Source: a virus (lineage: Duplodnaviria > Caudoviricetes). From it: a DNA stretch of 64,000 nt. Position 1 is the first letter of the stretch; each line of letters opens with the position of its first letter. The stretch is from the IMG/VR virus record IMGVR_UViG_3300027971_004105. The stretch is one strand, 5' to 3'. Shown here one piece after another: positions 1-17,744 of this stretch. The position numbers were made by a program, and so were the translations under genes. A model generated the notes under the pieces. That model did not search any database. It saw only the letters and a list, made by a program, of their open reading frames with translations, and was not told where the DNA came from.

Positions 1-2
1 GA

Positions 3-455
3 GGCTCTTTAAGTATTCCTACTTCAGTACAACAAGGTGATCCATTGTTCACTATAGTGGCCAATGGCTATGATGGCACTGATTACAGATTTTCCAGCGC
101 TATATCTTTTGACATTGATCCTGACACCAGCAATCCTGTAGGACCAAACGCAGTACCAGGAAAAATTAGTTTTGGAACATCTGCAGATGGTGGAGCAACC
201 TTACGAGGATTAGTTTTTGATGCAGATGGACAATTGGGTGTGAATATGACCTCTCCCACTGCCACACTGGATGTGAATGGTGCTGCAAAATTTGCAGGTC
301 CTGTGAGATTGGCCGTCGCTGCCAATGACACAGCAAGAACTGCTTATGGCACAGCATTGAAAGGACAATTAATATTCATGGTGAGTGGTACCTCACCAGC
401 AGCTACCAACAAAGTACAGGTGTACGATGGTGCAGCCTGGGTCAACCTACACTAA
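3..455 (+). CDS. C-terminal part of a tail fibre/virion protein (truncated by window start)
   Basis: Frame is open from position 3 (GSLSIPTSVQQGDPLF...). Contains GQLGVNMTSPTATLDVNG and ends in GQLIF...KVQVYDGAAWVNLH, both typical of phage fibre repeats. Confidence 0.65.
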   Translation, partial: GSLSIPTSVQQGDPLFTIVANGYDGTDYRFSSAISFDIDPDTSNPVGPNAVPGKISFGTSADGGATLRGLVFDADGQLGVNMTSPTATLDVNGAAKFAGPVRLAVAANDTARTAYGTALKGQLIFMVSGTSPAATNKVQVYDGAAWVNLH

Positions 456-461
456 TTAATT

Positions 462-1610
462 TTATTTTTGAATTGTTTTGGATTGTTTAATTTTACAGTC
501 AGCCCAACTGCGATTGGTCCATTGAGAAGGTTTGTAATCTATATTTTTTGATTGAATACCATAACATGCTGGCACAGTATCATACAGTATCATTTTTTTA
601 TTCACAGCAGCATCACGCAACATAATTTGATGTAAAAAATTAGTGACTGGTTTGCCTGGCACGAAATCACACCAAGGTCCACACTTCAATTGTTCCAAGT
701 CAATGGTTTTAACATCACTCCATTGTATAATTCTATGAGTTATGCCATTGATATTCACCATGTAATGATAAAGATTATCATCAGCAGGTTGTTTTTCCCA
801 AGTCCACCCTTTGCGATCACAAATTTGTTTGATCAATTTGACATGATCACTGAGATAAAATCTAGGTTCATCAGGAGATCTACCTATGTCTGATCCGGCT
901 CTTATTCTGTATTGCCAACTCTTATGTCCTAAAGATTGTATTTCTTCCAGAACATGTTCCATATGATCCAAACTTTCCAATGTATATCCCACATAGTACA
1001 CAAAAATTCCTTCAGCAATACAATTGTCTATGCCTTGCAGTTGTTTTTGATGCACAGTTGCTCCTTGATAGGAATGATGATTCAAACCAATCATCACCAT
1101 GGTGGCTCCAGCAGCAGCGATTTCTTTCACCCATGCTCTGTCAGACAACTTTACTCCATTGGTCAATATGCACACGTCTTCAGGTCTGTTTAATCTTTTC
1201 AATAATGCTTTGATTTGTCTAATTAATTCTGGCAAGTCTTTGCGCACAGTGGGTTCAGCACCAGCCAATATCACAGCACCAGATTCTGCATGAAATCTAT
1301 GTTCAATCTGATCCAATATTTGTTCAATGGGTCTATCAGCTTGTTTATTGTCAGGTTTATGATAACAGTGCGGACAATTTAAATTACATCGGTCAGTGAC
1401 TTCTACCATGATCCCATGAGGAATGGTGTATCCTGAAACATCATAGTGTAATTGCTTATAAAATTCTACGTCTCTTTCTATTCTAATGTTTTGTGTGCCA
1501 TGCTCAGCACAAGTCTTGGTTAGATACACTCCAGAATCTCTTGTTTCTCTCACTGCTTCACAGTGTCTATAACAGATATCACACAAGCTAGTAGTTTTTA
1601 TATCTTCCAT
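462..1610 (-). CDS. Radical SAM protein, MJ0619/tetraether-synthase-like N-terminus
   Basis: CNLNCPHC motif, AGAEPTVRKDLPELI, TNG, and N-terminal TSLCDIC...KTCAEHG metal-binding motif. Confidence 0.85.
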   Translation of the reverse strand: MEDIKTTSLCDICYRHCEAVRETRDSGVYLTKTCAEHGTQNIRIERDVEFYKQLHYDVSGYTIPHGIMVEVTDRCNLNCPHCYHKPDNKQADRPIEQILDQIEHRFHAESGAVILAGAEPTVRKDLPELIRQIKALLKRLNRPEDVCILTNGVKLSDRAWVKEIAAAGATMVMIGLNHHSYQGATVHQKQLQGIDNCIAEGIFVYYVGYTLESLDHMEHVLEEIQSLGHKSWQYRIRAGSDIGRSPDEPRFYLSDHVKLIKQICDRKGWTWEKQPADDNLYHYMVNINGITHRIIQWSDVKTIDLEQLKCGPWCDFVPGKPVTNFLHQIMLRDAAVNKKMILYDTVPACYGIQSKNIDYKPSQWTNRSWADCKIKQSKTIQK

Positions 1611-1612
1611 GA

Positions 1613-2302
1613 TTATTTGTACAGTGCTATGGCAGCATCTATAAAATCTTTAGGGTAATTGTTTCTAAAACTTTCCAAACACAATATCTGCAAGCTGGCA
1701 AAGTCTGTGGGAGTGTGCATGTCAATATTTAGTTCATGCATTTTGGGCAGTAAAACTGTTCTCCTGTCTTGGGATATGTGACTGAAATGATCCTGCACAG
1801 TGATAAGTGGTTCGCTTTTGTGATAACAAAAGAAATAGTTAACACTTTTTAATTTGCCTTCCACCACAAAATAACTGCTGGGGTGTAAACTGTATTTGTA
1901 TAATCCTAATGTTTTGTGTGCTTGCAGAATCTCCAACATCTGTTCACGCCAATTGGGCAGCACTGCATCCATGCCCACTGTGTGACTCTGTTCCCAAAAA
2001 TCCACGCCATCAACGCCAAAGATAATTTTTTTATTGTCATAGTCCAGTTCCAATATGTCAGGAATGTGTTCTGGAAAATTGTGATGCATCATCAGCAGCA
2101 TATCCACTTCTCTCTGCCATTTTTGTTCCATTAGGATGGGATCCATCACTTCGTTTTGATCTCTGTGATACTCTGTGTCGTTGTGAAACCATTGCACAAA
2201 TTCTGTTTTATTTTGATTGATAAGACTGGTGTACACAAGATTGTTCCTGCACAATCCTTTGCCTGGCACATTATTGTAATAGTATACGTAGTCAGTTACC
2301 AT
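1613..2302 (-). CDS. Protein-kinase-like fold protein with degenerate catalytic motifs
   Basis: W-x-RE-V helix-C-like segment, P-x-I-x-x-x-D, then LGLYKYSLHPSSYFV..GKLKSVNYF. Paralogous to 10619..11254. Confidence 0.5.
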   Translation of the reverse strand: MVTDYVYYYNNVPGKGLCRNNLVYTSLINQNKTEFVQWFHNDTEYHRDQNEVMDPILMEQKWQREVDMLLMMHHNFPEHIPDILELDYDNKKIIFGVDGVDFWEQSHTVGMDAVLPNWREQMLEILQAHKTLGLYKYSLHPSSYFVVEGKLKSVNYFFCYHKSEPLITVQDHFSHISQDRRTVLLPKMHELNIDMHTPTDFASLQILCLESFRNNYPKDFIDAAIALYK

Positions 2303-2850
2303 CTAGGATATCTTTCCAATTGTTTGTAAAATTCTTGAACATTTAATTGCCACACAGTTTGATTTGTGCCTCTGTATTTTATTTGATTGATTTTTTTCAA
2401 ACATTTAGATTCTGCCAACATGGGTGCCCAAATATTATGCACTAGACGTTGAGTGCCTTCACTATTTTCATTGGTGGTCACATAAAGATTATTTTGTGAT
2501 CCAGCCCATTCAATACAAGTGGGAATAAAAAATTGTGGAGTGACGCTTTGATGCGTGAGTATGCCTGTTTTGGTTCTTAATCTTGAGATAGGCAATTGAT
2601 CTGTGAACACACAAGTTCTACACAATATTCTAAAACTATTTTCACCCATTTCAGGAAAAGAATGAGCGCCAGTAGACCCCACTATTTTATTGTTGTATTT
2701 AAGCAACCAAATTTTCCATTTTTTTTCTGTGGAGATGCTGTCCACCAACATTTTTTTATTACTGTTGTTTTTGAATCCTTTGGATTCTGCTTGAAGATAA
2801 AATTCTGTTAAATCAATCGATTCAGAATATGGTACCAATTTATAAGTCAT
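2296..2850 (-). CDS. GNAT-family acetyltransferase-like protein
   Basis: WKIWLLKYNNKIVGSTGAH...FRILCRTCVF beta-strand pattern typical of GNAT. Confidence 0.55.
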   Translation of the reverse strand: MTYKLVPYSESIDLTEFYLQAESKGFKNNSNKKMLVDSISTEKKWKIWLLKYNNKIVGSTGAHSFPEMGENSFRILCRTCVFTDQLPISRLRTKTGILTHQSVTPQFFIPTCIEWAGSQNNLYVTTNENSEGTQRLVHNIWAPMLAESKCLKKINQIKYRGTNQTVWQLNVQEFYKQLERYPRW

Positions 2851-2877
2851 AAATTATTTTGCTCTCAATATTTAACA

Positions 2878-2884
2878 CTAAATA
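2878..2884 (+). promoter_or_regulatory. T4-type late promoter variant CTAAATA
   Basis: CTAAATA 5 nt upstream of the ATG at 2890, with no Shine-Dalgarno. A divergent TTAAATA lies on the minus strand at 2869-2875. Confidence 0.45.
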
Positions 2885-2889
2885 TTTGG

Positions 2890-3696
2890 ATGATAAGAGG
2901 AATTGGTGGCCGACCATATATTGATTTAACTCCACATTTGGATATAGAAGGTTTTAGGAAATTACATCCTGAAATTTGCCGAGGATTTGCTTTGGCTAGA
3001 GAATATGCCAAAGAAGGCACATGGATGTCGCCAGGATTTAATCTACAAGACATGAGTTATCAATTGAATTGGAAACCAATTTATCAGGCTGTGAAAGAAT
3101 ATCTTGCACTGCCCATAGATCATCCTATTAGAAAAAACGGTGATGATTTGTATGCCAATATCAAAGATTACCGCACAAGAAATCAATTCACACGCTACCT
3201 CAAAGCAGTGTTGGGTGCCAAAGATCCATACATCTATTATTTTTTATGGAATGAAGGCGATTGGGATAATAGAAATTCTGAAAGACATCTCACAGAGGAA
3301 AGCAAACATTTTCCTGGATTGGTCACATGGGTTAAAAATCTTGTGGATCAAAACATTATCAGTCAAATAGGCAGAGTGATATTTTTTCACTGTGAACATG
3401 ATGGACAACCATTTGAACACAGAGATCTAGATGGCAAACTGGGTGATCAACAAGGATACAGTGATCATCGCAATGAGTTCATACACATACGTTATAACAC
3501 CAAAAGAGGATTTTATATTTGGGATCCTGAAACAAAAAACAAAACCTACATCAATGCCAATGCAGCTTTCTGGAACGATCAAGACTGGCATGGTGGAGAA
3601 ATTAATCGTGAACAAGAGTATGGATTGAGAATTGACTGTGTGTTCACCGATGCATTTAGAAAAAAATTAGGCATCGATCATTTAAAAAATTATTAA
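2890..3696 (+). CDS. 2OG/Fe(II)-type (cupin) oxygenase-like protein
   Basis: FEHRD and WNDQDWHGG give an HxD...H facial triad. Paralogue of 9321..10076 (shared N-terminal G-x-x-G-[KR]-PYI). Confidence 0.6.
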   Translation: MIRGIGGRPYIDLTPHLDIEGFRKLHPEICRGFALAREYAKEGTWMSPGFNLQDMSYQLNWKPIYQAVKEYLALPIDHPIRKNGDDLYANIKDYRTRNQFTRYLKAVLGAKDPYIYYFLWNEGDWDNRNSERHLTEESKHFPGLVTWVKNLVDQNIISQIGRVIFFHCEHDGQPFEHRDLDGKLGDQQGYSDHRNEFIHIRYNTKRGFYIWDPETKNKTYINANAAFWNDQDWHGGEINREQEYGLRIDCVFTDAFRKKLGIDHLKNY

Positions 3697-3697
3697 T

Positions 3698-4321
3698 ATG
3701 AATAACTTTCATCGTTTTATAAATCTACCTTTTACCATAGATAGACCAAAAATTTTTGATACATTAAAAGTGCCTAACTGGTCAAGTGGTGGTATGACTT
3801 TTGAAATAGCTAAACAGCATGTTGATAAAAGAATCCTTGAATGGTTGGATAGTTTTAATATTTCCACATCTCAATTTTTTGAAGGAACTTACACTGCACC
3901 TAATAATGGATCTATTGGCATACACAGCGATACAGATACATTGTCGGACATGACCAAATTACTTTTTATTTGGGGGCCAGACAACAGTTTCACTAGATGG
4001 TGGGAGCCTAAAATTGATGCAGTTTCTTCAAAGATGCGACCAGATCAAGGAGGCCCGCATGCTGAAATTTTCAATCCTGACACGTATGTTTATGAATTTG
4101 ATGATGCGGACAGAGCACTGTGTTATGAAGAAAAAGATTGTAATTTATTGTATGAAAAAGTTTTATCTAAACCAAGCATAATTAACGCAGGCAGATTGCA
4201 TAGTACATTTAATAATGGCAGTGAAGATCGATGGGGTCTTACTCTTACATTAATGAAAAATAATAAAAGATTACAATTTTTTGAAGCATTAGAAATTTTT
4301 AAAGACATAATACATGAATAA
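3698..4321 (+). CDS. 2OG/Fe(II)-type oxygenase-like protein
   Basis: IHSD...LHSTFN...RWGLTL triad pattern. Tandem paralogue of the next gene. Confidence 0.6.
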   Translation: MNNFHRFINLPFTIDRPKIFDTLKVPNWSSGGMTFEIAKQHVDKRILEWLDSFNISTSQFFEGTYTAPNNGSIGIHSDTDTLSDMTKLLFIWGPDNSFTRWWEPKIDAVSSKMRPDQGGPHAEIFNPDTYVYEFDDADRALCYEEKDCNLLYEKVLSKPSIINAGRLHSTFNNGSEDRWGLTLTLMKNNKRLQFFEALEIFKDIIHE

Positions 4322-4931
4322 AACTATGTCTGATCAAAATTATTATCACAGATACTTAAAATTACCATTTGAATATTTAAAACCAAGATGTTTTAATAAA
4401 AGTTATGATCATCCTAATATGATATATGTTTTGCCAGAATCAATTGACCAAAGTGTGATCAAATGGATCGAGTCCTTCGATTTAAAAGTATCCAATCTTA
4501 TTGAAGGATTTTATACTCCCACAAATGGTGGAAAGATACCTCTGCACAATGATACCTCTACCATAAGCAATGCTGTAAAAATTAATTTTACCTGGGGACC
4601 AGACAACAGTGTGACCAGATGGTGGCATGTGAAACAACCTGAATATTTAAAACCGGTCAAACCAGACAATAGTCATATATTAATTGCGGGTGTGGTGCCC
4701 GATATAGTGGTCACAGATGCTTACTCAGCACGTGAAGAAGATTGTGATTTGGTGCATGAGCAAGTGATCAATAGACCCAGTTTGATGAACATAGGACAAC
4801 TGCACAGCACATTCAATCCCAACATGACTGAAGATCGTTGGACACTGTGTTTTACTCTGTTAAAATTAGATAACACACATCTACAATTTGAAGAAGCTGT
4901 GCAAATATTCAAAGATTATATTCATGAATAG
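4314..4931 (+). CDS. 2OG/Fe(II)-type oxygenase-like protein
   Basis: LHND...LHSTFN...RWTLCF. Shares WGPDNS-x-TRWW and IFKD-x-IHE with 3698..4321. Confidence 0.6.
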   Translation: MNKTMSDQNYYHRYLKLPFEYLKPRCFNKSYDHPNMIYVLPESIDQSVIKWIESFDLKVSNLIEGFYTPTNGGKIPLHNDTSTISNAVKINFTWGPDNSVTRWWHVKQPEYLKPVKPDNSHILIAGVVPDIVVTDAYSAREEDCDLVHEQVINRPSLMNIGQLHSTFNPNMTEDRWTLCFTLLKLDNTHLQFEEAVQIFKDYIHE

Positions 4932-5460
4932 AACAGTGCGTATTACCTGCCCCAAAGAATTTAATAAAAAATACATGTCTCGTCAACATGACAATTATAT
5001 CAACAAGTTGAATGTGTATCACAACGCACAAAAAATATTTGCCAACATTGATGATGCAGAGGAGAATCTTCCTATAATATTAGAAAAATCCATTGTGTTC
5101 GATAATATCAACGTTTTTGAATTCAATTATGATATTAAATTTCACTCAGTGGAAGAGCAGGCCAAAATTATATGGAGTCTTAAACCAATAAATTATCTGT
5201 ATCAAAGTCATGTGCAGTTGATCAGACTCAACAGTGTGCAAGGCAGTGAACATGTGTCAGATGACTATCGTATCACAGTGAAGTGTAATCAATACACTCA
5301 CTCAGTGGGCAAGGAATATCATCAAGGACAACATCAAAACATAAATTTTAAGGATCTCATAGATGCCAACGGATACTGTTGTTTCAGCGTGGAAACCAAA
5401 AAAGTTTTTGATAACACTTCAGCCATCACATACGATCAATTACAATTTGAAATACTATAA
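4924..5460 (+). CDS. Hypothetical protein
   Basis: ORF in an operon. Start placed at the ATG at 4924, which overlaps the previous stop (ATGAATAG). Confidence 0.6.
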   Translation: MNRTVRITCPKEFNKKYMSRQHDNYINKLNVYHNAQKIFANIDDAEENLPIILEKSIVFDNINVFEFNYDIKFHSVEEQAKIIWSLKPINYLYQSHVQLIRLNSVQGSEHVSDDYRITVKCNQYTHSVGKEYHQGQHQNINFKDLIDANGYCCFSVETKKVFDNTSAITYDQLQFEIL

Positions 5461-5468
5461 TTATTGCT

Positions 5469-6584
5469 ATGACTCTCAAAGGACTTATACCTGGCAGACA
5501 GCAGCCCACACATCCAGCAGACAAACATTGGCAATTTGGTACTGTTATGAATGGCGTTAAAAAGGTTGATCCTTTGTTGCATTATAGTTGCTTTACTTTG
5601 GGATTCGATAGAACAGATATCATTCAATATGTGTGTGATGCTATGAAAAATATCAAACCAGAAATAGCAGAATCTATTGTGCATGCTGAAGATTTAAAAT
5701 TAAACCATGCAAGTTATGAACTCAGCAATAAATTGTTTAAGATGAGTGGCGGATATAGAAGCTTCTTCGCATTGTCAGGCAGTGATGCCAACGAAGGAGC
5801 AATAAAGTTATCTTCTGCCTATCATCATGTGAAGAAAAACAATAACAAAAAACAAGTGATAAGTTTTGAGGGCAGTTATCACGGCAGCACTTTCCTTAAC
5901 AATAATCTTGGAGATCTACTGATGATCAATCCCATGTACAACATGGATAGGTATCATGGTGCAACAAGACTTGCCAGAGATTTTGAAATAGATCAAGTGG
6001 ATTGGACCAAAGTGATGAGTGTGATAGTAGAACCATGTTCATACGGTGGGGACATGACTCCAAACTCAAATGAGTTTTGGCAAAAATTAAAACATGTTCA
6101 ACAAACATTTGATGTGTTGATCATTATGGATGATATTTTTATAGGGGGAGGCAAAACAGGTAATTATTTTGGGTGGAAACACTTGCCCATACAACCTGAT
6201 ATCTGCACCATGGGCAAAGCCATCACAGGTGGATATTTTCCTTTGAGCATTACCATGTACAATGAAAAAATACATCAAACACTGCCCACAAACTTTGATT
6301 GGGATCATGGATACACCTATAATTTTTCTCTGTCAGGCATCAACAGTGCTTTAAAATATATGGACATACTGGAAAAAGAACAGGTATTGAACAACCATCA
6401 AACAATTCAAAACACTGCTGTTAAAACTATTCAAAGCACAGGTTTTGAAATACTGAATCGTTTTGGTTGCCTCTATATGATACGCAAAGGCAATTATAAA
6501 AATTTATATATTGTGCCTTTGAATGCTACTGAAGAATATTTTACTGTGCTTAAACAAAATTTAGAATCATATGAAAATAATTGA
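5469..6584 (+). CDS. Class-III PLP-dependent aminotransferase (BioA/GabT-like)
   Basis: SGSDANEGAIK, SFEGSYHGST, VIVEP, IIMDDIFIGGGKTG, PDICTMGKAITGGYFPLS (PLP lysine). Confidence 0.9.
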   Translation: MTLKGLIPGRQQPTHPADKHWQFGTVMNGVKKVDPLLHYSCFTLGFDRTDIIQYVCDAMKNIKPEIAESIVHAEDLKLNHASYELSNKLFKMSGGYRSFFALSGSDANEGAIKLSSAYHHVKKNNNKKQVISFEGSYHGSTFLNNNLGDLLMINPMYNMDRYHGATRLARDFEIDQVDWTKVMSVIVEPCSYGGDMTPNSNEFWQKLKHVQQTFDVLIIMDDIFIGGGKTGNYFGWKHLPIQPDICTMGKAITGGYFPLSITMYNEKIHQTLPTNFDWDHGYTYNFSLSGINSALKYMDILEKEQVLNNHQTIQNTAVKTIQSTGFEILNRFGCLYMIRKGNYKNLYIVPLNATEEYFTVLKQNLESYENN

Positions 6585-7125
6585 TAATTTTTTTGACTCT
6601 GCAACGCTATCAGAACTAAAAAAAGCCATTCAAAACGAAATAGCTAACGAAATCAGTGCTATTAAAAAATCCGACCTGAGCACAGAAAAAGATCATGTAG
6701 GATTAGAAAATAGCAATTATTATTTTTTAAATGGTCCTGCTAAAATTATTGTATTAAAAAATTTAGTGGCAAATAAGTTGTTGTCTGCTGAAGTGATGGA
6801 TGATAACGACAGTATGCTACGCTATCATGTCAATAGAGCTCCCTACAATGCTAGATGGCATTTGGATGGATTGTATGCTGAAAAAGATGAATTGGATTAC
6901 ATAGGCATAACAATTTTCTTAAATGATGTTTGGCAAACAAATGACGGAGGATTATTTGTTTACAAAGAAAATAAAAATGATACACAGGGCAAGTTTGTTG
7001 AACCCATAGGTAATAGAGTTATAATTAATTCCAAAGATCTTGATCACGCAGTTACAGCAATAACCAACCAAGAAGTGATTCGATATTCTTTACAGATGTT
7101 TATTAATCACAAATACTTAATATGA
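6571..7125 (+). CDS. Prolyl-4-hydroxylase-like 2OG-Fe(II) oxygenase
   Basis: RWHLDG, IFLNDVWQTNDGGLF, EPIGNRVII, DHAV, RYSLQMF. Confidence 0.85.
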   Translation: MKIIDNFFDSATLSELKKAIQNEIANEISAIKKSDLSTEKDHVGLENSNYYFLNGPAKIIVLKNLVANKLLSAEVMDDNDSMLRYHVNRAPYNARWHLDGLYAEKDELDYIGITIFLNDVWQTNDGGLFVYKENKNDTQGKFVEPIGNRVIINSKDLDHAVTAITNQEVIRYSLQMFINHKYLI

Positions 7126-8195
7126 TACACACAGAATTTGATCCATTACAAGAAGTAATTGTGGGAGATTGTTATGCTCCTGGAGATATGGATCATTTTT
7201 TACCCAAAGAAAGCATATCAAGTTTCAACAGAATACTGGAAGAAACCAAACAAGACCTTAACAATCTTGCAGATTTTATAAAAAACTCTAACATCAAAGT
7301 GCATAGACCAGAAGTACTAAAATACACAAAATCTATAGAGATGCCTAATTTTAAAGTGAATTTTCCCATGTGCCCCATGGTACCTAGAGATCAATATCTG
7401 ATTTTGGATAGACAAATTATACAAACTTACACCAGCTACACAGATAGATATTTTGATTCGTTGAGTTATGTGAAAATTTTTAATGAATTATTCAAAGAAG
7501 GATACAATTGGATTTCACAGCCTCTGCCCAAACTAATCAACACTCAGATAGATGAAAATTGGTACATATCTGACTCTATCTATCAAGAAAAATTATCAGA
7601 TCAATTGCTATGGCACACAGCTGCCATATTCAAAGCAGGAGATTCTTTGCTGTATAACAGTAGAGGTCCTGGTTCTAGCTTTGGTTTGGAATGGTTCAAA
7701 CGTAATTGTAAGGATTATACACTGATTGAAAACACTGGTGATACTGTGTTTAAAAACTACGGACATATTGATCATGGATTTTTATTAATAGACGATGACA
7801 CAGTAATACATGCTGGCATAGAATGGGTGCCTTTGGCATTAAGAAATAAAAAATTAATAGATGTTAAAAACTACGTTGGCAAAGTTGTGATAGACAACTA
7901 TATCAAAGACTACACTGCCACAGATGGCAGATATTCCAATGCTTGGTTGGAGCAATATCTGGCTAATTGGCGAGGATACACACAAGAAGTTTGTTTTGAT
8001 TTAAACGTATTAATTTTAGATTCAAAAAACATATTGTTTGGCAAACATTTACCTGAACTATTTCAATATTTAAAGACTTTCAACATCAATTGTCATGTGG
8101 TGCCACAACGTCACGAAGTATATTGGGAAGGTGGAACTCATTGCTGCACACTAGATGTTAAAAGAAAAGGTTCAAAAAGAAAGATAATAAATTAA
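7122..8195 (+). CDS. Amidinotransferase-family protein (glycine/inosamine-phosphate amidinotransferase-like)
   Basis: EFDPLQEVIVG, PRDQ, HIDH, GGTHCCTLDVKR. Confidence 0.85.
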   Translation: MIHTEFDPLQEVIVGDCYAPGDMDHFLPKESISSFNRILEETKQDLNNLADFIKNSNIKVHRPEVLKYTKSIEMPNFKVNFPMCPMVPRDQYLILDRQIIQTYTSYTDRYFDSLSYVKIFNELFKEGYNWISQPLPKLINTQIDENWYISDSIYQEKLSDQLLWHTAAIFKAGDSLLYNSRGPGSSFGLEWFKRNCKDYTLIENTGDTVFKNYGHIDHGFLLIDDDTVIHAGIEWVPLALRNKKLIDVKNYVGKVVIDNYIKDYTATDGRYSNAWLEQYLANWRGYTQEVCFDLNVLILDSKNILFGKHLPELFQYLKTFNINCHVVPQRHEVYWEGGTHCCTLDVKRKGSKRKIIN

Positions 8196-8746
8196 ATTTT
8201 TCTTACATCAATAGTGCTGACGTACAAAGGCTCATTCAATACAGTATTAAAAATACGAATGATATCTTGAGTATCACAGAAGGGTTCACTCTGTCTAACT
8301 CCGGTTTTTTCACCATAATTTAAAATTCGTATCAGCACACTTTGAGGTTGAGCACCAAATGGTGTTTTAACACTTAAAAACCTATGCACATTTTCCAAAT
8401 GAGTTTTTTGTTTAATATAATTTAAATCAGCGCCCACTTGTTTTAAAATATCTTCTGATAACTCAGTACCCAATGTACCAAAAGTTACTATTTTGCCTGT
8501 TTTATTTGTTTCACTCCATTTTTTATGAACCATCATCAACAGTTGAATCTGTGCATCACCCACGTGTGCTAGATTGACAAAATGGTCATAACTCGCACTT
8601 TGATCAACCACTCGTTGAATATCTTCCAATTTGTTCAAATTGTATCCAGTGTTTCTAGATATGCCCACAACTTCATGATGATGTTTGAGATGTTCAAACA
8701 ACACAGATCCTATGGGAGAAGTATGTCCGGTCATTAATATTTTCAT
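8192..8746 (-). CDS. Short-chain dehydrogenase/NAD(P)-binding Rossmann-fold protein
   Basis: MKILMTGHTSPIG...VVGISR...FVNLAH, SDR-like N-terminus. Confidence 0.65.
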   Translation of the reverse strand: MKILMTGHTSPIGSVLFEHLKHHHEVVGISRNTGYNLNKLEDIQRVVDQSASYDHFVNLAHVGDAQIQLLMMVHKKWSETNKTGKIVTFGTLGTELSEDILKQVGADLNYIKQKTHLENVHRFLSVKTPFGAQPQSVLIRILNYGEKTGVRQSEPFCDTQDIIRIFNTVLNEPLYVSTIDVRKI

Positions 8747-9324
8747 AATACTGTGAACCTCACTATCTGTATAAATCTACTGTCCATGCTGCTGCCATGT
8801 CCGTATTCTTCAATTTCAAACATGATAGGATTGACTCCTTGCCAAAAAAATTCTTTTTCTGCACTCAAGGTGGTGCCTGCTTGCACGTTTTGATTGTGTA
8901 TCAGTGTTTCGCCATTCAGTTTAAAATGGAAGTATTCTTGACTGATACCAAATTTGTCATTGAAAGATTGCAATGATTGTGCATCACACAGTGATAAGTT
9001 ATAGGTAAATTTACATGACCACCAGTCTACATCTTTATAAATCAACTCAATTTGAGCTGTGAGTTCTATTTGTTTGTCATCATGCCAACTTTGTTTATTT
9101 TGTAGTACCAATGTGTTATTGTTTTTTTGTAAAACAATTTCAGCGCTTCTGCTTATGCTTTTTTTTTCAGCAGTTTCCTTGCTTAATTCTATGGTATCAA
9201 ACAATACAGAGTTGTTCCATTGCAGTATCAATTGATCCTGTAACTTACCTTCAGCAACCAGTTCATTGGCTACATAAGAAGAACGCATCACTGGAAAATA
9301 ATCAAACTGTAATTTTTTTTTCAT
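8743..9324 (-). CDS. Hypothetical protein
   Basis: 193-aa ORF with 4-nt overlaps to both neighbours. Confidence 0.6.
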   Translation of the reverse strand: MKKKLQFDYFPVMRSSYVANELVAEGKLQDQLILQWNNSVLFDTIELSKETAEKKSISRSAEIVLQKNNNTLVLQNKQSWHDDKQIELTAQIELIYKDVDWWSCKFTYNLSLCDAQSLQSFNDKFGISQEYFHFKLNGETLIHNQNVQAGTTLSAEKEFFWQGVNPIMFEIEEYGHGSSMDSRFIQIVRFTVL

Positions 9325-10076
9325 TGTTTTAATTGAGCCATTAATTCTTTATTAAAGATACCTTCTATTCTCATAGACCAACTCACTTTGTTGGTATTTT
9401 CCACTCCGCCATGCCAATCATGATTGTTCCAATAGAATGAGCTGCCGGGATTCATGTGTATTTTTTCGTCTCCGTTTTCCACATACAAAGATCTAACATT
9501 CATGGGATCAAACCATATAAAATGCTCTTCTTGTTCATAGGGTTCCATCTGTAAAAAGCAATCTCTGTGTTTGACAGTTTTTAATCCAGAATTTTTCAAC
9601 AATAGTATGATTGGTCCCAATGGTTCAAATGGCAGTTTTTTAGCCCAATCCACCAGTGATGGAAAATACTTGGATTCTTCTGTCCATCTACAGTCATACA
9701 TTGGTTTTTTATTTGCATCATAAGGTAGATATGGAGCGTTAATACATCTATCAAATTCTCTTATCACAAGATAATTCAGTGCTTCGTACACAGGATACTG
9801 ATACATTAACCAGTAATGAAAACCCACCATGTCGGTTTTTTCCAACTCTGCACCGTACTGTTTTAATTTAGGATCTGTTTCTTTATCACGCCAATAATTA
9901 TAGGCTCCTTTAATATCATCCACATATTCTTCATGATTTTCTATGCCGTAGTTCAATCTAATATGTGCGTGAGCTTTGCCTATGCCATAGTGAATATCTT
10001 TTGTGATGTCTTTTAATTGTTGTATATTCACATAAGGATCCATACAGATGTATGGTTTGCCGTAAACACCTTTCAT
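9321..10076 (-). CDS. 2OG/Fe(II)-type oxygenase-like protein
   Basis: KHRD...WNNHDWHGG...SMRIEG. Paralogue of 2890..3696. Confidence 0.6.
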   Translation of the reverse strand: MKGVYGKPYICMDPYVNIQQLKDITKDIHYGIGKAHAHIRLNYGIENHEEYVDDIKGAYNYWRDKETDPKLKQYGAELEKTDMVGFHYWLMYQYPVYEALNYLVIREFDRCINAPYLPYDANKKPMYDCRWTEESKYFPSLVDWAKKLPFEPLGPIILLLKNSGLKTVKHRDCFLQMEPYEQEEHFIWFDPMNVRSLYVENGDEKIHMNPGSSFYWNNHDWHGGVENTNKVSWSMRIEGIFNKELMAQLKQ

Positions 10077-10077
10077 A

Positions 10078-10626
10078 TTATCCCCATATGTTAAAAATAT
10101 ATTTGGGCACTAATCCTGCATTGGATCCTGCATGCCATGAAGTGCGTTTGGGCCATTTCCAAGTGGCTCCTGTTTCTTGATTGTACAAACAATGATCTTC
10201 CACAATTAAAACATGTCCTGGTGCTGGTGGACTTATGTGGCAATGAAATCGAACTATTTCTTTTTTGTGTTCTAAAGTTTTTTCATCGTCGGTGATATCC
10301 CAATGCCAAGGTGCTACATCTCCAGGTTTTACTCTACTGATCCAAGCATTGATATAGCTGCTCATTCCCACCCATTCACAAAACTTTTCCGCTATCTTTT
10401 TATCAAAATTTGTGCCTGGTAGGTACATGTCCCAACTGGCATTGCCGCCTTCGTGTTTCATTTTATAGCCAGCTTCACGCAATGGTTTGGCCACTTCTTC
10501 CACTCCTGGCACGTGATGCCCCACATCATGTCTTGGTCCTATATAAGCACTCTGTTGATCTTCAATGCTTTTTATAACACTGTGCCAATCAATCAGATCT
10601 TTGCAGTTACCCACATATTCAAGCAT
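10078..10626 (-). CDS. Asp/Asn beta-hydroxylase-like 2OG-Fe(II) oxygenase
   Basis: AWISRVKPGDVAPWHWD, RFHCHI, SWHAGSNAG. Confidence 0.7.
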   Translation of the reverse strand: MLEYVGNCKDLIDWHSVIKSIEDQQSAYIGPRHDVGHHVPGVEEVAKPLREAGYKMKHEGGNASWDMYLPGTNFDKKIAEKFCEWVGMSSYINAWISRVKPGDVAPWHWDITDDEKTLEHKKEIVRFHCHISPPAPGHVLIVEDHCLYNQETGATWKWPKRTSWHAGSNAGLVPKYIFNIWG

Positions 10627-11254
10627 TTAAAAAATCTCCTGGCCAATTGCCATAATTCATTTCCACAGTTAATTCATACAATTTAAAAGTGTCATACAAT
10701 TCACCCACAAGACTTTGAGCAAATCTAGGATGAGTGGGATCAAATAATATGGATTTTAACAATTCCTTGGACACATATCTATCTTCGTCACAGGTACAAC
10801 CGTAAAGATCCATTATGCGAACTTTGTTTTTATCATCCAAATAAAATGTGTGTGGATACAGATTGGATTTGTGTATGTTCATTGACAATAAGTCTGACAA
10901 AATGTCTTTGACTTGTTGTTGCCAGTTGGGCACTGCGGATATTTCGCCTGTGTGTATAAGTTTGCTTAGACTACGATCATACCATTTGAATTCAATGGTT
11001 CTATTTCTGTGATCAATGTTTAAGATTTCAGGAGCATATGGTTTATTTTTTAATTTTTCTATATAATTGGTTTCTCTAGCAAACCAATTTTGTCTAAAGT
11101 CATCTGTCATATTGGAATTAACAAAATATTGATTGCTGTTAAAATTCATTTTAAATATATCTTTGTCAGGACTAATCAATGGTTCATACACCATGTTGGC
11201 AATGGCTAATGTGCCCAGTTCATGTTTGTAAAAATTATTCCAATATTTCATCAT
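10619..11254 (-). CDS. Protein-kinase-like fold protein with degenerate catalytic motifs
   Basis: WFARE, YAPEILNID, NIHKSNLYPHTFYL, RIMDLYG. Paralogue of 1613..2302. Confidence 0.55.
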   Translation of the reverse strand: MMKYWNNFYKHELGTLAIANMVYEPLISPDKDIFKMNFNSNQYFVNSNMTDDFRQNWFARETNYIEKLKNKPYAPEILNIDHRNRTIEFKWYDRSLSKLIHTGEISAVPNWQQQVKDILSDLLSMNIHKSNLYPHTFYLDDKNKVRIMDLYGCTCDEDRYVSKELLKSILFDPTHPRFAQSLVGELYDTFKLYELTVEMNYGNWPGDFLNA

Positions 11255-11918
11255 ACATAACCTTTATGTTAAATCCACAAGTGTCTACCAGTTTGTTCAC
11301 TTGTGGTAGATGAGTGCGTTCTATTTTAAAACTTATTTCAGTTTCAGAAATTTTTTTAAATTTATTCATACATCCTTGTTTGTTTAATCTATTTAAAACT
11401 ATGGAAAAACTATGATCAAACAAATATCTTAGATTGTATGGAGGATCATTAACTATAATTTTGACCGAACACGGATCTTTTAGTTCTACTTTGTTTAATA
11501 ATTTTCTTACCACAAGTTGAATGCGTGATTTATATCCCAAATTAGCAGCAGAATGTATGCGACCAGCATCCATAAGATACACTGTGTTGTCCACTTCAGT
11601 GGGGTACATTTTTAAATTTTTTAAATCATACAGATAACTGTGTTCACCTTGCAGTGTCAAATGGTATCGGTCATCTATGTCAGCATGAGCACAATAACTT
11701 TCACCTGGCTCTAATACAATTATTCTTGCTTCACCCACAGATCCCAGTTGAGCAAACAGATCCACAATGGCGGGCTTTTTGAATTCATCTTTCAACTGCC
11801 AAGCATCATAGAAAAAATCTCCAGTAGGTTTATTCAATTGAGTTTTTGGTAAATCCAAAATTGGTAAACTGTTAAAAATTTCTTTGGCTGAACATGTGAT
11901 ATTAATTTGGTCAAGCAT
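11235..11918 (-). CDS. Asp/Asn beta-hydroxylase-like oxygenase with C-terminal extension
   Basis: ARIIVLEPGESYCAHADIDDRYHL, YLMDAGRIHSAAN, RIQLVV. Confidence 0.75.
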   Translation of the reverse strand: MLDQINITCSAKEIFNSLPILDLPKTQLNKPTGDFFYDAWQLKDEFKKPAIVDLFAQLGSVGEARIIVLEPGESYCAHADIDDRYHLTLQGEHSYLYDLKNLKMYPTEVDNTVYLMDAGRIHSAANLGYKSRIQLVVRKLLNKVELKDPCSVKIIVNDPPYNLRYLFDHSFSIVLNRLNKQGCMNKFKKISETEISFKIERTHLPQVNKLVDTCGFNIKVMYDEILE

Positions 11919-11923
11919 AGCTG

Positions 11924-11967
11924 TACTTATCGTGAAAAATTATGTGGGCAGTTAATTACGATAAATA
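11924..11967. promoter_or_regulatory. Divergent late-promoter pair
   Basis: ATAAGTA on the minus strand at 11924-11930, 5 nt before the ATG at 11918. ATAAATA on the plus strand at 11961-11967, upstream of the ATG at 11981. Confidence 0.5.
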
Positions 11968-11980
11968 CTCTGTCCATACT

Positions 11981-13024
11981 ATGTCCAATTTCGAGCAGTC
12001 AAATTTCAGTGATGAATCGTCAGTCAATGCTGGCCAATCATCTGAACAGTTAATCAGGATACAGAGCAACCAAAAAAAAGATAGTTTTAGGATAGAATTA
12101 TTCCTCAGCAACAGATGCAACTACAAGTGCTGGTATTGTTTTCCAGGATCCAATGAAGGCACACATGGTTGGCCTGATCTTGAATTGATCAAAAAGAATC
12201 TTTCCCATCTCATTGAACACTACAAAAAAAATATTGGCAAAAAAGATTTCTATCTGCACCTCATAGGAGGTGAACCCACCATATGGAAAGATTTTGGAGA
12301 ATTTACCAAATATTTTAAAGAACAATTCAACTGTTTGATTAGCATGAGCACCAATGGATCACGCACACTGAGATGGTGGGAAGAATATGGTCATTACAAT
12401 GACATTGTGATGCTGAGCTGTCATCATGAAAGAGTGGACGTGCCACATATTGTTGCTGTGGCAGATCTGTTGTACAAAAAAGGAGTCAGCGTGGATGCCA
12501 ACGTGCTGATGGATCCACATGCTTGGGATAAATGTGTGGCCATAGTGGAGCAGTTAAAATCCAGCCGAAAAAAATGGGCCATAAATGTGTTGGAGATTTA
12601 TCACAGCACAGTGAATTACAATGAAGAACAAAAGAAATATCTCAGTGACTGCAACAAAAGAAATCCATCATTTTTTCAACTGTTCAACTGGAAAAAAAGA
12701 AGGTTTGAAAAATTTAATTCCACTCCCACATTACATTTTAACAATAAGAAAAAGAAAAGAGTATTACAAAATTATCTTTCATTGAACAGTATGAACAATT
12801 TTGAAGGATGGCAGTGCAATGTGGGTGTGGACACCATACAGATCGACAAGCATGGATTAATCAAAGGCTCTTGTGGTAATCGTCTTTATAATTTGAATCG
12901 TTCATTCAATCTATTTAACCATGATTTTACTGATAACTTTTACCCTGATATTGTGCCCACAATTTGTGAAAGAAAACGCTGTACTTGTCAACCCGAAATC
13001 AACTGCAATAAAAAAACTTTATGA
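11981..13024 (+). CDS. Radical SAM protein with C-terminal SPASM/twitch-like Cys domain
   Basis: CNYKCWYC, GGEPT, TNG, C-terminal C...GSC...C-x4-CTC. Start moved to the ATG at 11981 downstream of the promoter. Confidence 0.85.
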   Translation: MSNFEQSNFSDESSVNAGQSSEQLIRIQSNQKKDSFRIELFLSNRCNYKCWYCFPGSNEGTHGWPDLELIKKNLSHLIEHYKKNIGKKDFYLHLIGGEPTIWKDFGEFTKYFKEQFNCLISMSTNGSRTLRWWEEYGHYNDIVMLSCHHERVDVPHIVAVADLLYKKGVSVDANVLMDPHAWDKCVAIVEQLKSSRKKWAINVLEIYHSTVNYNEEQKKYLSDCNKRNPSFFQLFNWKKRRFEKFNSTPTLHFNNKKKKRVLQNYLSLNSMNNFEGWQCNVGVDTIQIDKHGLIKGSCGNRLYNLNRSFNLFNHDFTDNFYPDIVPTICERKRCTCQPEINCNKKTL

Positions 13025-13842
13025 GTAACACAGAGCAATTAAAAACAATTTACGAAACCAGTGTGTTCAAAAACATATTGCATCTAGTTGATGATGTGTA
13101 TTTTCCTTTGGCCAGCCAGTGGAAAAACATTGGCGTCAGTGTGAGTGGTGGTGCTGACAGTGCTCTAATGGCATATCTGCTGTGTGATTTGATTGACAAA
13201 AATCAGTTGAATATCACTGTGCATATTATTACCAATGTTAGATGTTGGAAAACCAGACCTTGGCAGCGTCACAACAGTATGGAAGTTTATAACTGGTTGA
13301 CTGATGAATTTAAAAGCATAAAATTCAAAAGACACGAAAATTTTATTGCTCCTGAACTGGAATGGGGATCCAAAGGACCCAGCATTGTGGATGAATATGG
13401 TAGATTAAAGAGTGGCAATCAAATAGAACTGAGAGCACATGCTGAATATGTGGCTCACACAAAAAAATTAGATGCTTGGTACTGTGGAGTGACCAAGAAT
13501 CCCGATAAAGAATTTGATCATCGTCTCACTGACAGAGATGTGTTGCTCGACACATTGTCTGACACAGTGCTGGACAGATTAATCAAAGCACACATGGGCG
13601 GCTATGCTTGTCACCCTTTCACTTATGTGCAGAAAGATTGGATAGTTGCCCAATATAAAAAATTAGGCATAATGGACCTATTTGATCTCACTCGCAGTTG
13701 TGAAGGTGACCGCGACACATCACCTAAAATCTTTGGAGACTTGGACTACAGGACTTATGTGCCAGGCCAGCCCGTGCCCGTGTGTGGAGAATGTTTTTGG
13801 TGTCAAGAGCGACAATGGGGAGTAGACAGTGTCAGACCATAA
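13021..13842 (+). CDS. QueC-like PP-loop ATPase
   Basis: VSVSGGADSAL PP-loop and C-terminal TRSCEG...CGECFWCQER Zn-binding motif as in QueC. Confidence 0.7.
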   Translation: MSNTEQLKTIYETSVFKNILHLVDDVYFPLASQWKNIGVSVSGGADSALMAYLLCDLIDKNQLNITVHIITNVRCWKTRPWQRHNSMEVYNWLTDEFKSIKFKRHENFIAPELEWGSKGPSIVDEYGRLKSGNQIELRAHAEYVAHTKKLDAWYCGVTKNPDKEFDHRLTDRDVLLDTLSDTVLDRLIKAHMGGYACHPFTYVQKDWIVAQYKKLGIMDLFDLTRSCEGDRDTSPKIFGDLDYRTYVPGQPVPVCGECFWCQERQWGVDSVRP

Positions 13843-15247
13843 CGAATATTGGATGAATCCTGAAGATTCACAACTGGGCAAATGGCAGAGAGAAATAGAA
13901 TCTGTCACAGGCACACCCACCTATTGTATATTGCCTTGGATACATTTTGCCACCAGACCCAATGGTGACATGAGGCTGTGTTGTTCAGCCAATGCCAGTG
14001 GTGCTGGATCAGATCACACAGTGGGTATTATTAAAAAAGAAGATGGCACACCTGCCAACTTTGGAGTGGATACTCCTATGAGTGCTTGGAACAATGATTA
14101 TATGAAAAGTGTGCGTACCACCATGCTGAAAGGTCAGATACCTGCCAGTTGTCGCAAGTGTTTTGATGAAGAACGTGTGGGTGTGGTGAGCAAAAGAATA
14201 TGGGAAACTGGCACGTGGCATCGAGATGGTGTGGATGTGCCTGAACTGATACGTCAAACCCAAGAAGATGGCACAGTGCCTGAAAAATTATTGTATTTGG
14301 ATCTGCGTTTGGGACACACTTGCAATATCAAATGTGTGATGTGTTCTCCACATGACAGCAGCAAATGGGTGAATGATTGGCAACAACTGATGCCACAATT
14401 ACAAAACAAAGAAGTCAAAGATCAAATACAATGGGATCGAAAAGAATTCAACAACTTCTGGCATGAAAAAGATACTTTTTGGCAGGAGATGTATCGTCAA
14501 ATACCCAATCTCAAACAGGTGTATTTTGCTGGTGGTGAACCACTAATGATCAAAGAACACAAAACTTTTATAGAGGAAATCATAAGACAGGGTTATCAAG
14601 ATCGTATATTGTTGCGTTATAATTCCAATGGTATATTAGTGGATGAAGATTTAATCCAGTTATGGAGTAAATTTAAAAAAGTTAAATTTGCTGTGAGCAT
14701 GGATGCCACACATCAGCGTGATGAATACATACGTTTTCCCACACAATGGGCCACAGTGGAAAAGAATTTACACATGTTGGACAATACTCCTGACAACATA
14801 CAAGTGAGTTTAGCCACTGCCATACAAATTTTTAATATCAAACACTTACCTGATTTTATGAAATGGAAAATACAGAGCGGATTTAAAAAATTAAATGTGG
14901 GCACAGTGCCTGGTGGGGTACAAATGGGTGGAGGATTGGTCAACATGCATTTATTATACATACCAACTTTTTTAAGCATACAAATATTGCCCAAAGAAGA
15001 CAAACAACAAATAAGAGAACTGTTTATGGACTTTAAAGATTGGCTGAAGCACAATTATAGACAGGACGATGATTTTTGGAAAACCAATCCTTATGGATGG
15101 AGACGTTGGGAAGCAGTATTGATGCACATGGAAGCCAAAGATAATTCTAGATTGTTGCCAGGCTTTAAAGAATATGTGAACAAATTGGATGCTATCAGAG
15201 GATTGAGTGCTGCTAAAGTTTTTCCTGAGTTAGCACATCTTTTATAG
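13829..15247 (+). CDS. Radical SAM protein with N-terminal twitch/SPASM domain
   Basis: YCILPW...GDMRLCC...CRKC, followed by LDLRLGHTCNIKCVMC and FAGGEPL. Confidence 0.9.
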   Translation: MSDHNEYWMNPEDSQLGKWQREIESVTGTPTYCILPWIHFATRPNGDMRLCCSANASGAGSDHTVGIIKKEDGTPANFGVDTPMSAWNNDYMKSVRTTMLKGQIPASCRKCFDEERVGVVSKRIWETGTWHRDGVDVPELIRQTQEDGTVPEKLLYLDLRLGHTCNIKCVMCSPHDSSKWVNDWQQLMPQLQNKEVKDQIQWDRKEFNNFWHEKDTFWQEMYRQIPNLKQVYFAGGEPLMIKEHKTFIEEIIRQGYQDRILLRYNSNGILVDEDLIQLWSKFKKVKFAVSMDATHQRDEYIRFPTQWATVEKNLHMLDNTPDNIQVSLATAIQIFNIKHLPDFMKWKIQSGFKKLNVGTVPGGVQMGGGLVNMHLLYIPTFLSIQILPKEDKQQIRELFMDFKDWLKHNYRQDDDFWKTNPYGWRRWEAVLMHMEAKDNSRLLPGFKEYVNKLDAIRGLSAAKVFPELAHLL

Positions 15248-16843: not shown

Positions 16844-17744
16844 TGTTCAACTTGGTTATGTTTATGTCTGCAGCACAAGTGCACCATTTGCGAGTACAAT
16901 CAATAGGTGTTGTGGGTTTTGCAAAAGTGCCTTGATAGATGTTGCCCAAACTGCCACCCACTCTACAAGTGGCTCGGTGAACTGCACCATCCCAATTGAT
17001 CATAAGACTTTCCACACCAGCCATACAACTCCATCCTAGAAATTGATTGGTTTTGTTGATCAGTAAATCATTCACATTGCATTCCACTGTGTTGTCTATG
17101 AGAGTATTTTTTGGTGGGGTATGATTGTTTACTGCCAAAAATTCTTTCTCTTCCGCACTGTAATGAATCATGTCTTCAAAATCATCGTGTGTTTTGGTCC
17201 AGCGTATGGGTCTCAGAGCATAGCGTATGCCCGCATCTAAAAGAGCCTCACAAGCGTCTTTAACGTCTTTTAAACGTCCTGGCAGCATCATCATATGCAC
17301 TAGAACATTTTTGTTGGCAGACTGTGCGTAAACCTTGATAATTGTGTTTATCACCTTCAGCCAATCAGATTCCAAATGCACACTGAACACAATATGATTG
17401 ATATAGTTTTCCAAAATATTTTGGTAAAATTCCACAGTTCTGGTACCATTGGTGGTGACATTGATCCAACCAATTTTATTTTTGGCATGTTGTAACAACT
17501 GTTCTATGTGTGGATGCACACAAGGTTCACCGCCAGTCAAACTGATTCTCACATTGGGTATAACGCTCAATGTGTCCACAGTGCGTTTCAGTATTTCTAT
17601 ATCAGTGTGTTCACTGTGATTGTCATGTATTTCTGCTGGACAATAGCTGCAATCCAAATTGCATCGTTTGCCAAGATTCCATTCCACTTTGACACTGTTT
17701 CTGATATGAGGATACAAGTGTTCCACTTTAAACATAATCAGCAA
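16833..17744 (-). CDS. Radical SAM protein (C-terminal twitch-like domain)
   Basis: CNLDCSYC, TGGEP, TTNG, CMAG...TC...CTRKWCTC. Confidence 0.9.
   Translation of the reverse strand: MLIMFKVEHLYPHIRNSVKVEWNLGKRCNLDCSYCPAEIHDNHSEHTDIEILKRTVDTLSVIPNVRISLTGGEPCVHPHIEQLLQHAKNKIGWINVTTNGTRTVEFYQNILENYINHIVFSVHLESDWLKVINTIIKVYAQSANKNVLVHMMMLPGRLKDVKDACEALLDAGIRYALRPIRWTKTHDDFEDMIHYSAEEKEFLAVNNHTPPKNTLIDNTVECNVNDLLINKTNQFLGWSCMAGVESLMINWDGAVHRATCRVGGSLGNIYQGTFAKPTTPIDCTRKWCTCAADINITKLNNVD

Follow-up and report, generated by a model that had tools for sequence, protein, structure and literature searches.

Analysis of a 64,000-nt stretch of viral DNA (Duplodnaviria; Caudoviricetes; IMG/VR record IMGVR_UViG_3300027971_004105), hereafter referred to as the window and providing the numbering of all positions, revealed three genes on the plus strand at 5469-8195 encoding an aminotransferase-fold protein (AT), a putative 2-oxoglutarate (2OG)/Fe(II) oxygenase (OX) and a relative of the arginine amidinotransferases (AMT); these names, and Z, A, B and C for the genes preceding them, are working names. 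An initial annotation of this DNA had described three coupled genes here, and the open reading frames (ORFs) were found exactly at the positions it gave, with overlaps of 14 nt between AT and OX and of 4 nt between OX and AMT. The coupling of the three genes was thus borne out, but the unit itself is larger, since in the ORF listing seven plus-strand genes between 2890 and 8195 each abut or overlap the next, and the trio is the downstream end of this seven-gene, translationally coupled operon. The genes of the operon and the gene that converges on it are as follows.

2890..3696, plus strand: Z, 268 aa, first gene of the operon, with an HxD...H pattern
3698..4321, plus strand: A, a paralogue of B with 42% identity
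4314..4931, plus strand: B, of a virus-only family, probable double-stranded beta-helix Fe(II)/2OG-type oxygenase
4924..5460, plus strand: C, 178 aa, predicted all-beta sandwich
5469..6584, plus strand: AT, 371 aa, class III (omega-amine type) pyridoxal phosphate (PLP) aminotransferase-fold enzyme with a short C-terminus
6571..7125, plus strand: OX, 184 aa, prolyl-4-hydroxylase-type 2OG/Fe(II) oxygenase
7122..8195, plus strand: AMT, 357 aa, amidinotransferase family, of a virus-specific 'His-type' clade
8192..8746, minus strand: short-chain dehydrogenase/reductase (SDR)-like gene, 184 aa, converging on the trio

The conserved core of the operon consists of the five genes B, C, AT, OX and AMT. 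The AMT stop is overlapped by the opposite-strand gene, and the earlier description of this gene as an SDR convergent with the trio agrees with its N-terminal Rossmann match to PF01370 (9.5e-5), with a match to an NCBIfam short-chain dehydrogenase model that lies under the model's cut-off (3.9e-5) and with the presence of TGxxxxIG and YxxxK.

Regarding the last gene of the operon, comparisons of sequence and predicted fold place AMT as a full-length relative of the AGAT/StrB1/HsvA/SxtG amidinotransferases within the pentein superfamily. Searches with phmmer matched AMT to the solved amidinotransferases HsvA (5wpi, 2.9e-22, residues 2-354), SxtG (1.5e-19), StrB1 (2.5e-19) and AGAT (5e-15), and when its AlphaFold2 model (predicted local distance difference test, pLDDT, 75; residues 334-338 below 50) was searched with Foldseek, the top seven matches were chains of the same four proteins (E 1e-18 to 1e-20, template modelling score, TM, 0.62-0.68). 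HsvA was the best fold match (E 2.7e-20, TM 0.68), and DDAH and ADI came next at about 1e-6, far behind the transferases. AMT had no Pfam match even at E<=10 and no NCBIfam match at E<=0.01, and its sole library match was PHROG 25854 (4.9e-14), a family listed with function unknown. A search for longer fused forms of AMT found none, which is weak evidence, and a nucleotide search with the trio against 50,697 phage records gave no match. Residues 256-292 are a clade-specific insertion with conserved Y279, W283, G285 and Q288, modelled at a pLDDT below 50, which may form a lid over the active site.

The motifs VPRD (87-90), WHTAA (164-168), HID (215-217) and GGTHC (337-341) were found in AMT, and the PRD, HID and GGxHC elements that the initial annotation had reported are therefore kept. 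The same annotation had aligned WHTAA, by recall, to the catalytic FDAAD of glycine amidinotransferase, and rightly so: pairwise HMMER alignments of AMT with HsvA, StrB1 and SxtG each place His165 opposite the Asp of F-D-A-A, which by counting along the StrB1 chain is triad Asp179, and MAFFT alignments likewise pair His165 with the triad Asp. All four solved relatives show F-D-A-A at the site aligned with position 165, and AMT is set apart from ordinary members of the family because this defining catalytic residue was looked for and found to be replaced.

The conservation of the site was followed in two sets of homologues. A search of 5.8 billion proteins gave 371 relatives, the best 120 of which are full length and 55-98% identical to AMT; the resulting set of 121 sequences shows no variation at D90, H165, H215, D217, H218, H340 or C341, and all but one of them (120/121) have E or D at position 336. 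Cluster representatives (1.8 billion) searched exhaustively with HMMER yielded 633 relatives, with identity falling sharply beyond 42-45%, and among the 126 full-length representatives analysed the nucleophile C341 is present in all 126, the catalytic H215 in 125, and the guanidinium-binding D217 and D90 in 124 each. Position 165 is variable in this wide set (D in 38, H in 18, N in 15, S in 14, E in 9, and others), and its variation is coupled to that of position 336: an acid stands only at 165 in 33 of the 126 relatives, only at 336 in 78, at both positions in 14 and at neither in a single one. In a FastTree phylogeny the wide relatives form a block with the canonical Asp-165/Gly-336, a large block with a variable position 165 and Asp at 336, and a compact block with His165 and an acid at 336 that includes the window AMT; the latter pair of residues is kept in the wider clade down to 29% identity.

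The pattern at 165 and 336 follows clades and is therefore a signature, and not the outcome of many independent events. Since His165 is invariant in the 121 homologues and an acid has been gained at 336, the change from Asp to His, as judged from these alignments, is a clade character and no sign of decay or of a lesion. Because loss of the acid at 165 accompanies gain of an acid at 336 across the 126 relatives, the triad acid seems, on the simplest reading, to have moved to position 336, five residues before the Cys (W-E/D-G-G-x-H-C), and Glu336 is probably the acid partner of the catalytic His in place of the lost Asp. His165 itself would then have acquired a new, conserved job.

The first gene of the trio, annotated initially as an aminotransferase, matches PF00202 (Aminotran_3) at 5.4e-43 (147.6 bits against a cut-off of 30.5), and the PLP lysine Lys250 together with the pyridine-N Asp221, E188 and T283 is conserved in 44 homologues. 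The nearest solved chains of AT are gamma-aminobutyrate (GABA), putrescine, polyamine:pyruvate and omega-transaminases and ArgD, and no NCBIfam equivalog model reaches its cut-off. Similarly, the assignment of the second gene as a hydroxylase is upheld by a score of OX above the cut-off of PF13640 (2OG-FeII_Oxy_3; 1.5e-7, 32.7 bits against 27) and by the metal residues H97, D99 and H159 and the 2OG residue R171, which are invariant in 20-33 homologues; the sole PDB profile match of OX was 4iw3 (E 0.007).

Further candidate oxygenases are encoded upstream. In the B family H78, D80, H164, R175 and W176 are invariant in 19 sequences, and A keeps the B-family invariant positions H78/D80/H164/R175. 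Comparison of the Atlas model of B (predicted TM, pTM, 0.81) points to PhyH and 2OG oxygenases as similar folds (TM 0.54-0.58), and every one of its nearest clusters is viral. From the motif and the Atlas fold neighbours, B is probably a double-stranded beta-helix Fe(II)/2OG-type oxygenase, a grade that is held at probable because the hhalign comparison of the B and OX families gave no match. Z had no Pfam, PHROG or NCBIfam match; it is paralogous by eye to 9321-10076, precedes the core as a conserved gene both in the window clade and in loci L016/L018, and its HxD...H motif makes it a candidate for a further oxygenase. Near the N-terminus of B, at window positions 4354-4478, related strains in two lake metagenomes carry 120 unrelated bases in place of 123, with flanks that are 95-99% identical, and this segment is a short hypervariable cassette. 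The start of C is probably ATG 4924 and not TTG 4888, because the homologues, which begin MN(K/R), are 178 aa long. Its AlphaFold2 model (pLDDT 93.7) is an all-beta sandwich, for which fold searches (Foldseek, VIA wide) returned generic beta-sandwiches only, with a de novo immunoglobulin design at the top and best natural chains, lectin or C2-like, at a Z of about 6; a feature match of C in the Atlas, to a START-like oomycete cluster (0.92), was dismissed as fortuitous.

Relatives of AMT were located by degenerate-pattern scans of viral contigs and of representative genomes of 185,579 prokaryotic species, and the family was found in 124 viral contigs as against one 5.6-kb contig of a metagenome-assembled genome. 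This only cellular match (locus L081; JBBAKF010000125.1, 5.6 kb), assigned to Polynucleobacter, has as neighbours B, AT, AMT and a fusion of a SpeD-like and a 145-aa domain; it is probably viral DNA binned with its host, because the contig is short and its neighbours are of phage type, and it hints at Polynucleobacter as the host of its clade. ORFs were called at 81 loci, compared with the genes of the window and clustered, and AMT sequences grouped at 72% identity formed nine clades. AT lies beside AMT in eight of the nine, usually overlapping it and convergent with it in two or three. A B-type protein was detected near AMT in seven clades, a 145-aa protein (C-P-F-A ... F-L-P-D) in six, OX in five and C in five, C always in the arrangement B-C-AT-OX-AMT, and a gene of the AdoMet_dc family in two to three.

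The 145-aa family is virus-dominated and carries C-P-F-A ... F-L-P-D-H motifs; it lies directly beside AMT in 30 of the 81 loci, is without a Pfam match and has a weak Atlas feature link to DUF1415 and DUF6875. Members were found at the following positions.

L037:5544-6359, minus strand
L081:5044-5580
L017:11064-11507
L012:2923-3369

In L037 and L081 the AdoMet_dc (SpeD-like) domain and the 145-aa domain are fused in one protein, and this fusion is a Rosetta-stone link of the 145-aa protein to arginine/ornithine decarboxylation. The AdoMet_dc genes that directly follow the AT-AMT pair match PF02675 at 1.6e-13 to 1.9e-17 and are without the W-P-E proline, which, as we read PMC10407285, would mark a true S-adenosylmethionine decarboxylase (AdoMetDC). 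Phage SpeD homologues have been shown to act as arginine or ornithine decarboxylases and not as AdoMetDC (PMC9992855, PMC10407285), and the SpeD-like neighbours would link the module to arginine, ornithine and polyamines. Neither of these studies of viral polyamine enzymes (Li et al., 2023, PMC9992855; PMC10407285) mentions an amidinotransferase, and the window itself is without a SpeD-like gene.

In arginine amidinotransferases, arginine is the donor and ornithine the by-product. In the route proposed here, a small scaffold taken from the host would be hydroxylated or oxidised by at least one Fe(II)/2OG oxygenase and the class III AT would turn a terminal carbonyl into a primary amine; AMT would load the amidino group from L-arginine onto Cys341, with release of ornithine, and pass it to the AT-made amine, giving a hydroxylated guanidino compound. 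A two-step route from carbonyl to amine to guanidine is suggested by the constant pairing of an omega-type AT with an AMT that keeps the nucleophile, the base and both guanidinium-binding carboxylates. The gene structure, the homologies, the kept catalytic residues, the restriction to viruses, the synteny and the covariation of residues are observed directly, and we infer arginine as donor, transfer in preference to hydrolysis, the order of the steps and the nature of the acceptor. A small cationic amine is favoured as acceptor because HsvA, the nearest solved relative of AMT, amidinates spermidine, using arginine, in phevamine A synthesis (PMC6187163), because putrescine and polyamine transaminases are among the closest relatives of AT, and because AT-AMT adjoins SpeD-like pyruvoyl decarboxylases in some clades. 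That AT makes a primary amine which AMT amidinates from arginine, with an acceptor that is likelier to be a small amine resembling a polyamine or an amino acid than a cyclitol of the streptidine type, is the reading that we tentatively prefer, while stopping a little short of calling it probable. Its fuller form, in which a rebuilt virus-specific AMT (Cys341, His215, the acid at 336, His165) would act with an omega-type AT and oxygenases to give an undescribed hydroxylated guanidino amine, for example an amidinated polyamine, during infection by giant phages of lakes and oceans, is more speculative and, taken as a whole, somewhat unlikely.

Several observations weigh against this amine-to-guanidine route. 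The triad Asp (AGAT Asp254/StrB1 Asp179) is absent from AMT, all solved relatives that were matched are of the Asp type and none is of the acid-336 class, and the model of AMT is of moderate confidence overall, with a pLDDT below 50 around Glu336. AT matches only positions 25-326 of the 403 of the PF00202 profile. The C-terminal region of class III aminotransferases carries a carboxylate-binding Arg, and no conserved Arg or Lys was found in the 44 AT homologues past residue 283; as the final 77 profile positions are unmatched, the substrate, or even the type of reaction, may be unusual. The operon lies within an island of eight radical S-adenosylmethionine (SAM) genes (462-21624), which could mean a different acceptor. 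Searches of the 64-kb window by tblastn with the SpeD-like and 145-aa families gave nothing below E 0.1, and a search for AdoMet_dc (PF02675) in five records of the window clade, which at 6-26% completeness are uninformative on absence, found none.

Among known systems, the hsv/phevamine A enzyme HsvA (PDB 5WPI) of Erwinia amylovora and Pseudomonas syringae is the best match of AMT in both sequence and fold, at 22% identity. The two share the Cys nucleophile, the H-x-D motif and the Asp of PRD, but HsvA has F-D-A-A and F-G-G-x-x-H-C where AMT has W-H-T-A-A and W-E-G-G-T-H-C, and HsvA is partnered by two ATP-grasp ligases whereas the phage AMT is partnered by an aminotransferase and oxygenases; no ATP-grasp family was detected among the Pfam matches of the window genes at 1-15247 or among the recurrent neighbour families of the related loci. 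StrB1 (1BWD), AGAT (1JDW) and SxtG (6U1R) have the family and fold of AMT, but all three are of the Asp type. StrB1 and SxtG guanidinylate an amine made earlier in the pathway, as in the logic proposed for AMT; SxtG acts on a polyketide-like product, and streptidine synthesis employs a DegT-type aminotransferase, an inositol dehydrogenase and kinases. No partner genes of the streptidine or saxitoxin type are conserved with the viral core.

The alternative that survives best is that AMT mainly makes ornithine or an amine from arginine or another guanidino compound, either as a deiminase- or dihydrolase-type enzyme or by use of a trivial acceptor, with an ornithine-aminotransferase-like AT and, in other clades, the SpeD-like enzymes consuming the ornithine. 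The outcome would be putrescine or a diversion of host arginine nitrogen, in place of a guanidino product. Pentein-fold hydrolases all share the Cys/His/two-Asp chemistry and are the next-best folds of AMT, the clade-specific histidines (His165, and His218 in the narrow clade) could activate water, and AT is about equally similar to ArgD/acetylornithine transaminases and to omega-transaminases; moreover, the phage SpeD-like homologues that have been tested act on arginine or ornithine (PMC9992855). Against such a role, AMT matches transferases far better in sequence and fold (E about 1e-20) than it matches ADI, DDAH or agmatine deiminase (about 1e-6), the two to five oxygenase-like genes per operon are hard to fit to a simple catabolic route, and no N-carbamoylputrescine amidohydrolase or arginase partner was found among the neighbours scanned. 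We therefore regard this catabolic or hydrolytic role as unlikely.

A second alternative, built on the streptidine logic of the initial annotation, is a pathway in which a guanidino sugar or cyclitol would be built into a virion or host-surface glycan by the products of the radical SAM, kinase-like and glycosyltransferase (GT)-like genes. The eight radical SAM genes surrounding the operon and the convergent SDR-like gene are consistent with this. Two of the eight were assigned well above the NF033640 cut-off and a third by its zinc ribbon; no specific family was matched by the other six beyond those two NF033640 members.

13829-15247, plus strand: radical SAM with N-terminal twitch, NF033640 389 bits against a cut-off of 170
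17728-18996, minus strand: radical SAM with N-terminal twitch, NF033640 323 bits against a cut-off of 170
462-1610, minus strand: radical SAM with HMPTM-type N-terminal zinc ribbon (PF23545), related to TrsS and Tes

Homologues of the gene at 462-1610 adjoin AT-AMT in the unrelated loci L032-L034, L037 and L086, and this gene may for that reason belong to the AT-AMT pathway. Distant AMT relatives likewise lie among five or six radical SAM genes: the Campylobacter phages CP220/CPt10 have an amidinotransferase homologue among many radical SAM genes, as in the window, with CP220 gp086 flanked by five of them and by two GT-A-like genes, and a 252-kb sediment contig carries a 29%-identical His-type relative with six radical SAM genes around it. 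Next to a 45%-identical relative lie genes for a class III aminotransferase, an HMPTM-type radical SAM protein and a B12-binding protein (PF02310). Timms et al. (2010; PMC2853527) regarded the radical SAM genes and 'glycine amidinotransferase' of CP220 as an exchangeable module with no assigned function, and a cyanophage amidinotransferase-like protein and the neighbouring hydroxylase have been detected in purified virions (PMC12801897).

Most clades, however, have the core without a radical SAM, SDR, kinase-like or GT gene within 5-10 kb. The SDR-like gene was detected in 15 of the 81 loci, solely near relatives of the window, and the dehydrogenase and kinase-like partners on which the streptidine analogy depended are present in 14-15 of the 81 loci only; the radical SAM neighbours of the window are likewise shared by near relatives only. 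AT is of class III (PF00202) and not of the DegT type (PF01041) of sugar and inosose amination, and CP220 gp086 is canonical Asp type (G-V-D-A-A, F-G-G-G-x-H-C), just 29% identical to AMT and without an adjacent class III aminotransferase. The 'nearby GTs' of the earlier description, six minus-strand ORFs at 21567-25438, gave no Pfam match at E<=0.01. Thus the ketone-amine-guanidine logic that had been proposed holds in so far as the enzymes are intact (AT K250/D221; OX H97/D99/H159/R171; AMT D90/H215/D217/C341) and AT and AMT are neighbours in eight of nine clades, but the analogy with streptidine or a sugar is weak; a guanidino glycan as product is accordingly rather improbable.

Amidination of an amine-bearing hypermodified DNA base or of a protein side chain had been suggested as well, and the hints in its favour are positional: the core of the large marine clade has genes for a DnaB-like helicase, a primase and DNA polymerase III alpha as neighbours, and in L010-L014 AMT comes after T4-type scaffold and gp23 capsid genes. 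Known members of the amidinotransferase family act on small molecules in a deep pocket. No hydroxymethyluracil (hmU) kinase or transferase genes of thymidine hypermodification were found among the neighbours scanned, and no tRNA-guanine transglycosylase (PF01702) in five AMT-bearing contigs, fragments that are each about 24% complete and thus uninformative on absence. This suggestion is not sustained, and we regard it as highly improbable. Finally, although AGAT Asp254 mutants lose activity and no Pfam model recognises the viral protein, loss of the triad Asp is very unlikely indeed to have left AMT catalytically dead, because all 121 homologues, some as distant as 55% identity, retain D90, H165, H215, D217, H340 and C341, and the pair of His165 and acid 336 persists in the wider clade to 29%.

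Further observations concern the regulation of the operon and its setting in other phages. A scan for sigma-70 promoters performed no better than shuffled sequence (53 found against 56 expected), and a candidate 'late promoter', CTAAATA, before 2890 lies one mismatch from NATAAATA in AT-rich DNA. One lake metatranscriptome run gave three contigs of 150-236 nt at a depth of 2-3 (2957-3192, 3815-4003 and 5788-5938), for which DNA carry-over is possible and which are of no use as evidence of expression; a search with the trio alone found no match among public records listed as RNA. Contigs from 19 public lake and freshwater DNA runs (2017-2025, many studies) contain at least half of the sampled words of the stretch, and in the two of these runs that were aligned, contigs at 90-99% identity cover all of it. 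The long AMT contigs have CheckV completeness of about 23-26% at 82-92 kb, which fits giant phages.

In one freshwater clade a flavin-dependent halogenase-like gene (L065:6248-7807; Trp_halogenase, 4.9e-93) lies in the same run as the 145-aa, B, AT, AMT and SpeD-like genes, and a Trp_halogenase-like gene is also present in the related loci L061-L074, L077 and L079. Marine AMT phages have an apparently split DNA polymerase III alpha, with NTPase and finger regions on one piece of 543 aa and a finger-like region on another of 192 aa, which adjoins a DnaB-like helicase and a Toprim primase. Upstream of the marine module there is also a gene for porphobilinogen deaminase (L029:1129-1986; 1.2e-59). 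The marine replication genes are located as follows.

L027:3741-5369
L020:7126-7701
L019:2774-4282
L027:8824-9825

Regarding precedent, a literature search found no paper describing an AT-OX-AMT module, the nearest remarks being annotations in CP220 and S-SCSM2R. New are the covariation that points to a relocated acid, the recognition of a His-type viral clade distinct from that of CP220, the assignment of C as a beta-sandwich, the neighbouring 145-aa and SpeD-like genes with their fusion, and the freshwater context. Guanidino groups are installed by few enzyme families and, to our knowledge, virus-encoded amidino transfer has never been shown. The module is common, with more than 120 viral contigs from lakes and seas and a phage lineage that recurs in lake metagenomes from 2017 to 2025, and it is probably a real viral metabolic capability, because selection on it is clear and cellular genomes almost entirely lack it. 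The AMT family offers a natural experiment in the rewiring of the Cys-His-Asp centre of pentein enzymes. Through the link to phage arginine/ornithine decarboxylases the module would add a missing piece to the viral polyamine toolkit described of late, and, if an amidinated amine is indeed made, the product may serve as a DNA counter-ion or as a host-directed effector and would represent a new branch of viral polyamine/arginine metabolism.

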